A stretch of 64,000 nucleotides of DNA from Balneola sp. (GTDB taxonomy: Bacteria; Bacteroidota; Rhodothermia; Balneolales; Balneolaceae), in NCBI GenBank assembly GCA_965230095.1, contig OZ245946.1, forward strand, positions 517,210 to 581,209, written 5' to 3'. A program made the translations under genes and the position numbers. Numbering within the stretch: the stretch's first letter is position 1; the number at the start of each line of letters is the position of its first letter. Positions 8,687-57,182 of the stretch are shown piece by piece. The notes beneath the pieces were generated by a model. That model ran no database searches, was not told the origin of the DNA, and saw only the letters and a program-made list of their open reading frames with translations.

Positions 8687-8741
8687 TTTTTAAGTTCTCA
8701 AATATAACGAGATTTATGCTTTAGGTAAAAGTTAGTTTTCG

Positions 8742-8749
8742 TATCTTTG
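8742..8749 (+). promoter_or_regulatory. Bacteroidetes-type -7 promoter element upstream of nusB
   Basis: TATCTTTG 26 nt before the nusB ATG. Confidence 0.6.
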
Positions 8750-8774
8750 GGGCTCACAAAATTTGTTATTTGGC

Positions 8775-55578: not shown

Positions 55579-55639
55579 AAGAGTGATTCTCTTGTAGGTC
55601 TTATAAAACATTTAATATTCATTATGTAGAAAATATAAT

Positions 55640-56514
55640 ATGAGAAAGTTAATTCGGTGGTACATTCTTTTTTTTCTATTAATAAGTACTCAAAGTGTAT
55701 TAGGACAAAAGTATCAAGCAATTCTTGATTTAGAGGTTGGCAAAACATATAGCCTAAAAATTGAAGACAAACATTCTATAAATCTTGAGTATGAAGCTAA
55801 CTTAAATAAAAGTGATCTTATATTTAATTATGATTTACATTTTAAAGTTATCAATAATAAAGAAAACGAATACATAACTGAGGTACACTTTAGCAATTTT
55901 AGTTACAAAGAATCGAATACGCTATTTCAATCCTCTACTGATATTAAAAGTCCATTATTTGGTTTAGTTAATAAAAAGTTCACTGTGATTTTAAGCAAAT
56001 ACGGAGGTATCAATAATATAGAAGGACTACAACATATTGTTAATTCTCTAAATAGAACACAGTCTTTAAATGAAGATTGGTATGATGAATATTTGTCAGA
56101 TAGAATTCTTTTAGAAATACTTTTTTCTACATACCACCGTATCCAATAGCACCTGTAGCCAATGAAGTTCCTTGGTTACACCTTACCGGAATAGATGTTC
56201 AACTTGGATTTGTAAAATTAGAGTTAGAAGGAGTTCAAGAATATGATAATGACTCAGGTTATATCATTAGCAACAAAGGTAAGGCAATTGTACCAGATAG
56301 AATACTTTCTTTAGATACGAACAAGAGATTTTCCTATAATTCCATGACCATAGAGACAGATGGTTATTATCAACTTTCAAATTCTGGATGGCCTAAAAGT
56401 GGTAAAACAAACATTAAATCTATTTCCTCAATAGATTTGAAAATCACTGGAGAATCTGATAATACTGGGAGTTTTATATATTCAAGAAGTGTGGATTATT
56501 TGGAAAACTTTTAG
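55640..56514 (+). pseudogene. Frameshifted exported protein gene (DUF6263-like), about 291 aa if repaired
   Basis: ORF 55640..56149 with signal peptide; a second frame runs 129 stop-free codons from 56125 (FYIPPYPIAPVANEVPW...) to TAG 56514; the frames join at the T6 run 56121-56126. Confidence 0.7.
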
Positions 56515-56569
56515 GACGCTTAAAACAATAGGTTTTAAGAAATCTCAAATTTCAAACAGCAAATTTCAA
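56514..56569 (+). repeat. Direct repeat C, copy 2
   Basis: GGACGCTTAAAACAATAGGTTTTAAGAAATCTCAAATTTCAAACAGCAAATTTCAA; reads GRLKQ* versus asnS GRLKP*. Confidence 0.9.
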
Positions 56570-56643
56570 TTTTGGTCATCTCTGTAGATGTTAGATAATT
56601 CACTTACAAAAATTGACTTGTTTATAATTCTGACGATTTATAA

Positions 56644-56856
56644 AAAAGCTCCCAACTACACCGACCCTTAGAATTATTGGCGAGCCAAGAACGTAATGAA
56701 ATCGACGGCTCCGAAGGAGCAATCATTACACTCCGGCTGATTCGTGAATGTGTTCAATAAGAACGAAGACCTTTTGTAATGATTAGTCGATGTAATGGAG
56801 TTCGCGCCCATAATTCTTGTCGGGAGCTTTTGGTACTTTTGTCGGTACAAAAGTAC
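56644..56856 (+). other. Structured non-coding element, copy L (RNA or ssDNA)
   Basis: Nested stems, GCTCC-GAA-GGAGC hairpin, GAACGAAGACCTTT, terminal GTACTTTTGT-CGGT-ACAAAAGTAC hairpin. Confidence 0.8.
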
Positions 56857-56908
56857 ACAGAGCCAAGGAACTGAATTATATAAGAGGATTAACTTAGCAC
56901 AAGGGTAT

Positions 56909-57112
56909 CTACTTTTGTCTTGATACAAAAGTAGCAAAAGATCAAGCCGAAGTATTTAAGACGGGTTCACTGATCCTGCGCTGAATAATCCTAAAGGTCT
57001 TCGTTCGATCTGATACATTTCTACACTCTTCACCTGAAAGGATTATTCCTGCTTCGCAGACGCATCCGGATCACGCTCTCTTATCCGTCTTAAATACTAA
57101 GGGCAAATTTTT
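56909..57112 (-). other. Structured non-coding element, copy R (RNA or ssDNA)
   Basis: Same order of stems and motifs on the minus strand: 14-bp perfect stem, CTGC-GAA-GCAG, GAACGAAGACCTTT, CTACTTTTGT-ATCAAG-ACAAAAGTAG. Confidence 0.8.
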
Positions 57113-57159
57113 CAAGAACTATCTCTACAAAACTGTCATCGAATTAATTGACATCTACA

Positions 57160-57182
57160 ATCCCGAACTTGTTTCGGGATCT
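57160..57182. repeat. REP-like hairpin fragment
   Basis: ATCCCGAA-CTTGT-TTCGGGAT-CT. Confidence 0.5.

Follow-up and report, generated by a model that had tools for sequence, protein, structure and literature searches.

The locus and its architecture

The window analyzed here is a stretch of 64 000 nt from the genome of a Balneola species (G000, a single 3.45-Mb contig). Among ordinary genes, namely those for an aminoacyl-tRNA synthetase, a DUF6263 remnant, DUF6483 and RDD proteins, it contains two similar structured segments, L on the plus strand (56644–56856) and R on the minus strand (57112–56909), which have the same architecture and are separated by a 52-nt gap. All the motifs listed in the first-pass annotation were located and re-read in place: CCCTTAG, the inner stems, the C(GAA)G hairpins and the 10-bp stems are present in both copies, the long stem is perfect in R and has one mismatch in L, the 14-mer is identical between the two (Table 1), and CTTTTG is followed by the TACTTTTGT..ACAAAAGTA hairpin. 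Each copy folds into a single closed multi-helix structure that is followed by a separate terminal hairpin, and the folding energies are well below those of dinucleotide shuffles (z = −4.9 for L and −6.1 for R, with none of 200 shuffles as good).

The first-pass annotation was right about this shared architecture and about the likeness of the two copies, but it drew the unit too short, by ~60 nt on each side (to 56583 and 57159), took L and R for two elements rather than the arms of one, and overlooked that this element is repeated many times in the genome. Together, L and R form one 577-bp composite, MITE-like, non-autonomous transposable element, with boundaries defined by BLAST alignments of the genomic copies (query 24–600 and query 1584–2160, both of which translate to window 56583–57159). 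The outer ends are inverted boxes of 19 nt that begin with TGTAGATGT and have the sequence TGTAGATGTYAGRTAATTC; the two boxes in the window are identical at 16 of the 19 positions. When the entire 577 nt are folded, the arms fold individually and only the boxes pair across the element, so that 26 of the 182 pairs cross the middle. The sole ORF is an 87-aa frame with a TTG start, located on the minus strand and spanning both arms. The element shows the typical features of a MITE, namely short non-coding sequence, terminal inverted repeats, a target duplication of fixed length, and many copies with polymorphic insertions; neither a cognate autonomous element nor a transposase sharing its ends was detected among the families, box pairs and insertion sequences searched.

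Table 1. Parts of the composite element and of its flanks, in window coordinates except for the last row
Feature	Position	Strand	Remarks
Left flank, head of the target REP (GGTCATCTC)	56574–56582	+	Last 5 nt, ATCTC (56578–56582), form the left target-site duplication; empty site GGTCATCCCGAAC.. in G003 and G017
Whole element, 577 bp: box, L module, spacer, R module, box	56583–57159	.	BLAST boundaries of genomic copies
Left terminal inverted box TGTAGATGTTAGATAATTC	56583–56601	+	Also found at the outer ends of most L and R copies
L leader, between box and fold	56602–56660	+	Sigma-70-like match TTCACT-18-TATAAT at 56599–56628; no TAnnTTTG
L module core	56661–56823	+	P0 CCGAC/GUCGG, CCCUUAG junction, 13-bp P1, P2, P3 hairpin with GAA triloop, 10-bp P4 capped by a variable loop
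Invariant unpaired 14-mer GAACGAAGACCTTT in L	56761–56774	+	
L tail: GAGCTTTTGG, then terminal hairpin TACTTTTGT-CGG-TACAAAAGTA	56824–56856	+	Sequence conserved across genera, hardly covaries (helix 8)
Spacer between the two tails, 52 nt	56857–56908	.	Conserved among composite copies
R terminal hairpin (56910–56933) and CTTTTG tail	56910–56943	-	
R module core	56946–57104	-	Helices as in L, stem sequences differ; includes the GCGAAGC hairpin
Invariant 14-mer in R	56993–57006	-	
R leader	57105–57140	-	
Right terminal inverted box (TGTAGATGTCAATTAATTC on the minus strand)	57141–57159	-	
Right target duplication ATCCC (57160–57164) and rest of the targeted CGTC-type REP hairpin ATCCCGAA-CTTG-TTCGGGAT	57160–57181	+	REP type as in PMC3733652
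Flank repeats of other composites in this genome	~712 kb; ~1444 kb; ~1467 kb; ~2363 kb		GAAAT; GGGAT; ATCCT; AGGAT, respectively

Copy number and distribution

The genome encompasses ~25 copies of the module. BLAST detects 11 L-type copies (81–94% identical) and 11 R-type copies (74–93%), in addition to diverged ones, and the tail-to-tail L/R pair, as seen in the window, occurs in 7 places. Within the genus, 20 of the 22 Balneola species carry the module, with 2 to >35 copies each (0 to >35 over all 22), and it is represented in 11 of the 40 sampled genera of the family Balneolaceae; no copies were found in 24 genomes from six sister families, which were searched with stricter filters. Terminal boxes are missing from the copies in other species and genera. 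The box-less module appears as singletons, as a tail-to-tail dimer and as head-to-head dimers, the outer ends of the latter being the tail hairpins, with no target duplication. The head-to-head dimers in G033, for example, end exactly at the hairpins, have ~10 nt between the units, are antisense to both flanking genes and are not flanked by target duplications. The arms of the composite, which are ~60% alike, are diverged L-type and R-type copies of a ~170-nt three-way-junction module that is specific to Balneolaceae and older than the MITE.

The terminal box also occurs alone. About 15 solo modules, each consisting of a box plus a ~40-nt leader (TGTAGATGTYAGRTAATTC-GTTGACAG..), are located directly upstream of a REP hairpin in place of the fold and are preceded by a REP-head-like TCATYY (G000 295394, 401648, 490115, 1444328, 1677875, 2152049, 2310367, 2981733 and 3300333; G013 L070:3093–3160). 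Their flanks were checked for target duplications and turned out to contain similar REP heads, not true duplications. A different derivative is seen in G015 (L063, 564–1700), where at least 6 units with a period of ~187 nt form a tandem array; each unit is chimeric, joining the 3′ third of the L-module to another repeat (AACTCCATCACCCCGCTTTCAGCGAAATGATGG), the latter also present at ~1263470 in G000.

Covariation and selection on the fold

The covariance model used throughout was built from L-type copies alone. As suggested in the first-pass annotation, this genome and its relatives were searched with a covariance model, and further copies were recovered: the L-only model retrieves every R-type copy at full length, with scores of 43–78 bits, as well as copies from other genera that have different stem sequences. 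The module has an overall size of ~200 nt and includes 8 helices. In the structural alignment of 21 genomic copies, 94.1% of the cells are paired, compared with 34–48% when the partners are slid, and changes on both sides are observed in 30 of the 54 base pairs. In the alignment of 72 copies from Balneola and other genera, the respective values are 93.9% and 31–47%, compensatory double changes are found in 46 of the 54 pairs, with three or four pair types at several positions. Pairing reaches 99.3% in helix P4, where 8 of the 10 positions covary. When RNAalifold was applied to a plain MAFFT alignment of L and R, it yielded only two hairpins because the sequence alignment misplaced the stems, a problem that the covariance-model alignment solved.

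Conservation of the sequence itself is seen in the 5′ junction CCUUAG and in the flanks of the P4 loop, CUCAGGCU and GAAcGAAGACCUUU. It is most pronounced in the tail, made up of GAGCUUUUGG and the hairpin UACUUUUGU..ACAAAAGUA, with hardly any covariation. Base pairing on one strand is under selection, and the loops and the tail are maintained in sequence. The initial proposal of a family of structured nucleic acids selected for base pairing is borne out by both the 21-copy and the 72-copy alignments, and so is the absence of a match in Rfam: at the gathering threshold over the entire window and at E ≤ 10 over the region, nothing relevant was found among 4227 families, the best local matches having E-values of 0.6–8, far under the gathering threshold.

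Among 35 L-type copies, the number of minor-allele cells per column is 0.81 for paired and 4.13 for unpaired positions, that is, the paired columns are about five times less variable, and singletons are mildly depleted in stems (0.29 vs 0.46 per column). The combination of mild depletion of singletons with a far lower variability of the paired columns indicates that selection is exerted chiefly on the lineages from which new copies arise, individual insertions being only weakly constrained. The divergence between the genomes of G000 and G013, in which orthologous copies were compared, is mosaic, ranging from 67 to 100% identity.

Two regions of G000 (1464893–1471573 and 709783–715217) compared with their counterparts in G013 (L099 and L105) consist of blocks with 99–100% identity beside blocks with 67–85%, and one of the near-identical blocks spans a whole composite element. 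Such mosaicism suggests that Balneola species recombine frequently with one another.

Mobility and target site

That the locus might be a non-autonomous mobile element was among the initial suggestions, and it is borne out by the inverted repeats at the ends, by target duplications of 5 bp, by an empty site and by the polymorphism of the insertions. The 5-bp flanks of the window copy are a target duplication with one mismatch. Matching 5-bp direct repeats surround 7 of 10 independent box-type composites, namely the window copy, the four others of this genome in Table 1 and those at loci L071 and L073; the two copies in other species have AGAAT and ATCCC repeats, and a single-arm copy has ACTCT. 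The flanks of the remaining three composites do not match, as recombination between copies would produce. In every case, the target is GTC|AYYYY, the junction of tag and stem in the CGTC-type REP hairpins defined previously (PMC3733652). The element thus inserts directly after the GTC tag of these hairpins, with a 5-bp staggered duplication.

Empty sites, sought in relatives, are present in two sister species, G003 and G017, where the REP hairpin is intact and contains a single ATCCC (GGTCATCCCGAAC..). When the respective regions (G003:C14 and G017:C2) are compared with window positions 55580–57159, the 3′ end of asnS runs straight into the sequence to the right of the element, so that both the upstream DUF6263 cassette and the MITE are missing. 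The closest relative examined, G013, carries 9 copies, of which only 2 have orthologues in G000, while the rest are at sites that in G000 are empty or hold something else; most copies, then, are not common to the two genomes. In draft assemblies, copies sit at contig ends and break the assemblies. For the box-less units, clean empty sites were sought and none was obtained, the orthologous spacers being replaced rather than simply empty.

The CGTC-type REP hairpins, which start with GTCATCC and end with GGATC, are abundant in the genome (for example, window 57160–57181 and G000 1677940 and 2215130). One intergenic site, G000 1201022, is a hot spot of repeat turnover: across G017, G012, G003, G009, G021, G013 and G006, five of these species have an L-type copy there, two others have a plain REP or no insert at all, and G000 has a diverged R-like singleton.

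Another repeat, a palindrome of 18–20 nt (CTGCCTGTCGGCAGACAG), has entered the P3 loops of several L and R arms as well as REP hairpin loops and the terminal box. It is found at G000 1467547 (in the R arm of another copy), 943972, 1584759, 2363174, 2363531, 2766689, 310229 and 1263541. The palindrome at 1467547 is missing from the orthologous arm in G013 (L099) although the surrounding DNA is 99–100% identical, and copies of it flank a RAYT-like gene (2365714–2366304). It looks like an active mini-REP that targets hairpin loops.

The search for a mobilizing enzyme

Among the profile families tested, rve, DDE_Tnp_1, Tn3, DDE_5 and DDE_Tnp_1_4 have no representatives in this genome; rve, Tn3, DDE_5 and DDE_Tnp_1_4 are also missing in the high-copy relatives, the search for DDE_Tnp_1 having covered this genome alone. 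Nor does the genome contain a dispersed multi-copy insertion sequence of at least 600 bp: at that size, its dispersed repeats consist of this MITE and a few duplicated genes or rRNAs. No pair of boxes 1–3 kb apart was found in two complete relatives, and the ORFs beside the solo boxes are ordinary genes that end at the box. A check of neighboring genes for a linked nuclease or transposase, as recommended initially, spoke against linkage: in low-copy genomes, the copies adjoin unrelated housekeeping genes.

Two further routes were considered and rejected. A TnpB omega RNA is at odds with the absence of PF07282 from G000 and from the sampled module-bearing genomes G012, G028, G029, G031 and G033, the only match, in G070, being sub-threshold (21.6 bits against a cut-off of 26.3 bits). 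Retroposition of a SINE-like kind was set aside for now given the absence of RVT_1 from G000.

The one transposase class found in the genome is Y1_Tnp, with 9 Y1 HUH genes, 2 IS200-like and 7 RAYT-like. In the sampled family, Y1 genes are present in 10 of 12 module-bearing genomes and 11 of 29 module-free ones (41 in total, with no correction for relatedness or genome size). The most serious rival explanation is a ‘giant REP', whereby the module would be the folded ssDNA substrate of a trans-acting Y1 HUH (IS200/RAYT-like) enzyme that recognizes the tail hairpin and the adjacent CTTTTG. The singletons and the head-to-head and tail-to-tail dimers would then be analogous to REP singlets and REPINs, and the boxed composite would be a secondary vehicle. 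Apart from the identity and the distribution of the Y1 genes, this explanation is favored by the layout of dimers and singletons, which resembles that of REP families (PMC3733652), by the C(GNA)G triloops of P3 and the lack of a promoter or terminator, by the tail hairpin that is conserved without covariation, as expected of a protein recognition site, by the G033 dimers that end exactly at the hairpins without target duplications, and by the insertion of the RAYT-associated 18–20-nt REP in the P3 loop, in the same manner as in REP loops.

The opposing evidence comes in part from the composites themselves: inverted ends and 5-bp duplications are not HUH products and point instead to staggered cleavage. 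Furthermore, when the flanks of the 9 Y1 genes were scanned, other REPs were found beside three of them, and the module or its hairpin beside none, so the candidacy of these genes as REPtrons of the module was dismissed. The genome G028 carries ~10–12 copies of the module without any Y1 match at E ≤ 1e-5, the solo units are evenly split with respect to replication (4 vs 4), and the known HUH substrates are simple hairpins, not 170-nt junctions. The suggestion of a HUH or ssDNA substrate made in the first-pass annotation accordingly has observations on both sides: nine Y1 HUH genes are present and GNA-type triloops fit DNA hairpins, but the element does not flank the Y1 genes, and the composite generates target duplications. 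On balance, a module that serves as substrate of a trans-acting Y1 enzyme is less likely than not, though nearly as likely as one acting as RNA. As a separate observation, two RAYT-like Y1 genes of G000 (313049–313594 and 1858820–1859368) have their own palindromes on both sides, which is the classic REPtron layout.

Folding strand, RNA or DNA, and transcription signals

In the helices, G-U/U-G pairs outnumber A-C/C-A combinations (25 vs 7), which argues that the written strand is the folding strand. The G-U pairs are rare (~2% of the cells), so that the helices are nearly purely Watson–Crick. The loops of P3 belong to the C(GNA)G type of triloop, with GCGAAGC among them, and such loops form very stable mini-hairpins in DNA. 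These features, together with the REP-like organization of dimers and singletons, favor ssDNA. In favor of RNA are the multi-helix junction with conserved internal loops, the co-orientation of solo units with the gene on their 5′ side and the lack of a replication-direction bias. The orientation bias itself is only suggestive: in this genome, 7 of the 8 solo units point the same way as the gene on their 5′ side, but in a larger, cruder sample from other genomes the bias is weak, at 17 of 27 (17 to 10). For replication, a hand count relative to the origin and terminus placed by GC skew found no strand bias among the solo units. The leading guess, amounting to a slight lean, is that the fold acts as RNA; action as single-stranded DNA is nearly as likely.

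Transcription signals specific to the module were not detected in the region. The host tRNA genes carry the Bacteroidota-type TAnnTTTG promoter motif, which is absent from both the L and the R leaders. There is a sigma-70-like match in L and none in R, and promoter-like matches in the region are not more common than in shuffles. No terminator-like site is present, and no U-tract follows the A/U-rich tail hairpin. With neither a promoter nor a terminator of its own, the module is unlikely to represent independent sRNA genes, and module RNA, if any, would be made by read-through. The first-pass suggestion of an unannotated ncRNA gene is weakened accordingly, both by the missing TAnnTTTG motif and by the missing U-tract. 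As a by-product, TAnnTTTG can be recognized as a −7 motif upstream of most tRNA genes in G000 (for example, window 8687–8760, minus strand), which should help promoter calls in this lineage.

The more specific version of that suggestion, in which L and R are two convergent sRNA genes with promoters in the leaders and the tail hairpin as terminator, the pair having spread by duplication, is very improbable. The TTCACT-18-TATAAT match in L, the compact fold, the conserved unpaired 14-mer that could be a seed and the excess of G-U pairs over A-C mismatches are compatible with it, but, besides the lack of the signals described above and the shuffle-level frequency of promoter-like matches, the leaders are not conserved in other genera, and the G033 units abut head-to-head with ~10 nt between them. 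Least probable of all is a functionless fold in a selfish repeat, with helices kept by template switching or quasi-palindrome correction and covariation as a by-product, for although the almost purely Watson–Crick helices and the mild depletion of stem singletons fit such an origin, the branched architecture, the lengths of the helices and the sequences of the unpaired loops persist from genus to genus despite the turnover of stem sequences, the excess of G-U over A-C implies a preferred strand, and templated repair does not explain conserved unpaired motifs.

A tentative scenario and its significance

The overall reading preferred here, tentatively and at somewhat less than even probability, is that the element is a composite MITE moved in trans, whose older module works in single-stranded form, with a lean toward RNA. 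In this scenario, an enzyme supplied in trans would recognize the terminal boxes and make 5-bp staggered cuts, thereby moving the composite, whereas the module itself would function single-stranded. Its RNA would be made by read-through from flanking genes, the arms being promoter-less, and the dimer would offer a sense copy for transcription that enters from either side. The module could act as a 3′-end or protein-binding module that contributes to protection, processing or insulation of the transcript; insertions would thereby become tolerable, and the element would persist.

A bolder proposition, rather unlikely in our estimate, is that the module with its invariant tail hairpin is a single-stranded substrate or a required cofactor of an unrecognized mobilizing enzyme, as ssDNA if this enzyme is of the HUH type, or as RNA otherwise. 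Should it be correct, this would be a giant REP or a case of fold-dependent transposition, spreading without a detectable DDE transposase, TnpB or reverse transcriptase.

The module defines a new and well-supported family of structured nucleic acids, with 54 base pairs, 46 of them covarying, and the mobility of this family is demonstrated. In selfish repeats, usually the ends alone are conserved, whereas here the ends vary and an internal fold of several helices, together with its loops, persists across genera. The fold must therefore have a role, be it in mobility or in the toleration of insertions. None of the tested transposase classes that could account for 5-bp duplications is present in the hosts, so the element offers a way to find either an unrecognized mobilizing enzyme or a new class of 3′-UTR RNA modules. 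Balneola is a poorly studied marine lineage, and there are also implications for annotation because these repeats break draft assemblies and render intergenic regions hypervariable.

Comparison with known repeat families

The bacterial MITEs, such as the Correia/NEMIS elements of Neisseria, resemble the composite in being small and non-coding, with terminal inverted repeats and a short target-site duplication, in having many intergenic copies with insertion polymorphism, and in the need for a transposase in trans (PMC3184786). In ordinary MITEs, the ends pair together and match a resident insertion sequence, whereas here each 260-nt arm has its own covarying three-way junction, the fold is older than the inverted ends, and neither a cognate insertion sequence nor a DDE transposase was found among the families searched.

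The REP/REPIN-RAYT systems and the CGTC-tagged REPs (PMC3116915, PMC2817692, PMC3733652) are similar in that they comprise a structured palindromic repeat that occurs as singletons and as dimers, often hetero-dimers, in a Y1-rich genome, and the module likewise forms singlets and inverted dimers of the REP type, both tail-to-tail and head-to-head. The CGTC-type REPs are themselves the insertion target of the present element. In contrast to the module, which is ~200 nt long, has several helices and is found beside no Y1 gene, REPs are simple hairpins of 20–40 nt with a tetranucleotide tag, typically located beside a RAYT gene; unlike them, the boxed form described here also produces 5-bp duplications.

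Structured segments of comparable size are also known from mobile elements of other kinds. The PATEs derived from IS200/IS605 and the omega RNAs of TnpB/IscB share with the module a structured segment of ~150–200 nt and a boundary hairpin, and IS200-like TnpA genes are present in the genome. The module differs in that TnpB is missing in this and the other sampled module-bearing genomes, in that it contains no variable guide segment and matches nothing in Rfam, and in that its boxed form ends in inverted repeats and duplicates its target. ERIC/IRU in enterobacteria and BOX in pneumococci are modular intergenic repeats of ~100–300 nt whose fold probably matters in RNA co-transcribed with adjacent genes and for which no transposase is known. 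They are comparable to the module in intergenic size, modular structure and the lack of a known transposase, but are unrelated in sequence and different in architecture, and in the present case the target duplication, the empty site and the covariation are demonstrated directly. Finally, Rfam holds lineage-restricted, multi-copy structured RNA motifs. The module is akin to these in its clade-specific, multi-copy, covarying fold of unknown function; it differs in that none of the 4227 families matches it and in that its mechanism of mobility is partly documented.

Altogether, the element has most in common with MITEs and with REP/REPIN-like or ERIC-like repeats, from which it is set apart by the size and complexity of its conserved fold. 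It is a new family of mobile structured repeats outside the Rfam families, a composite MITE that has an ancient covarying module as its arms.
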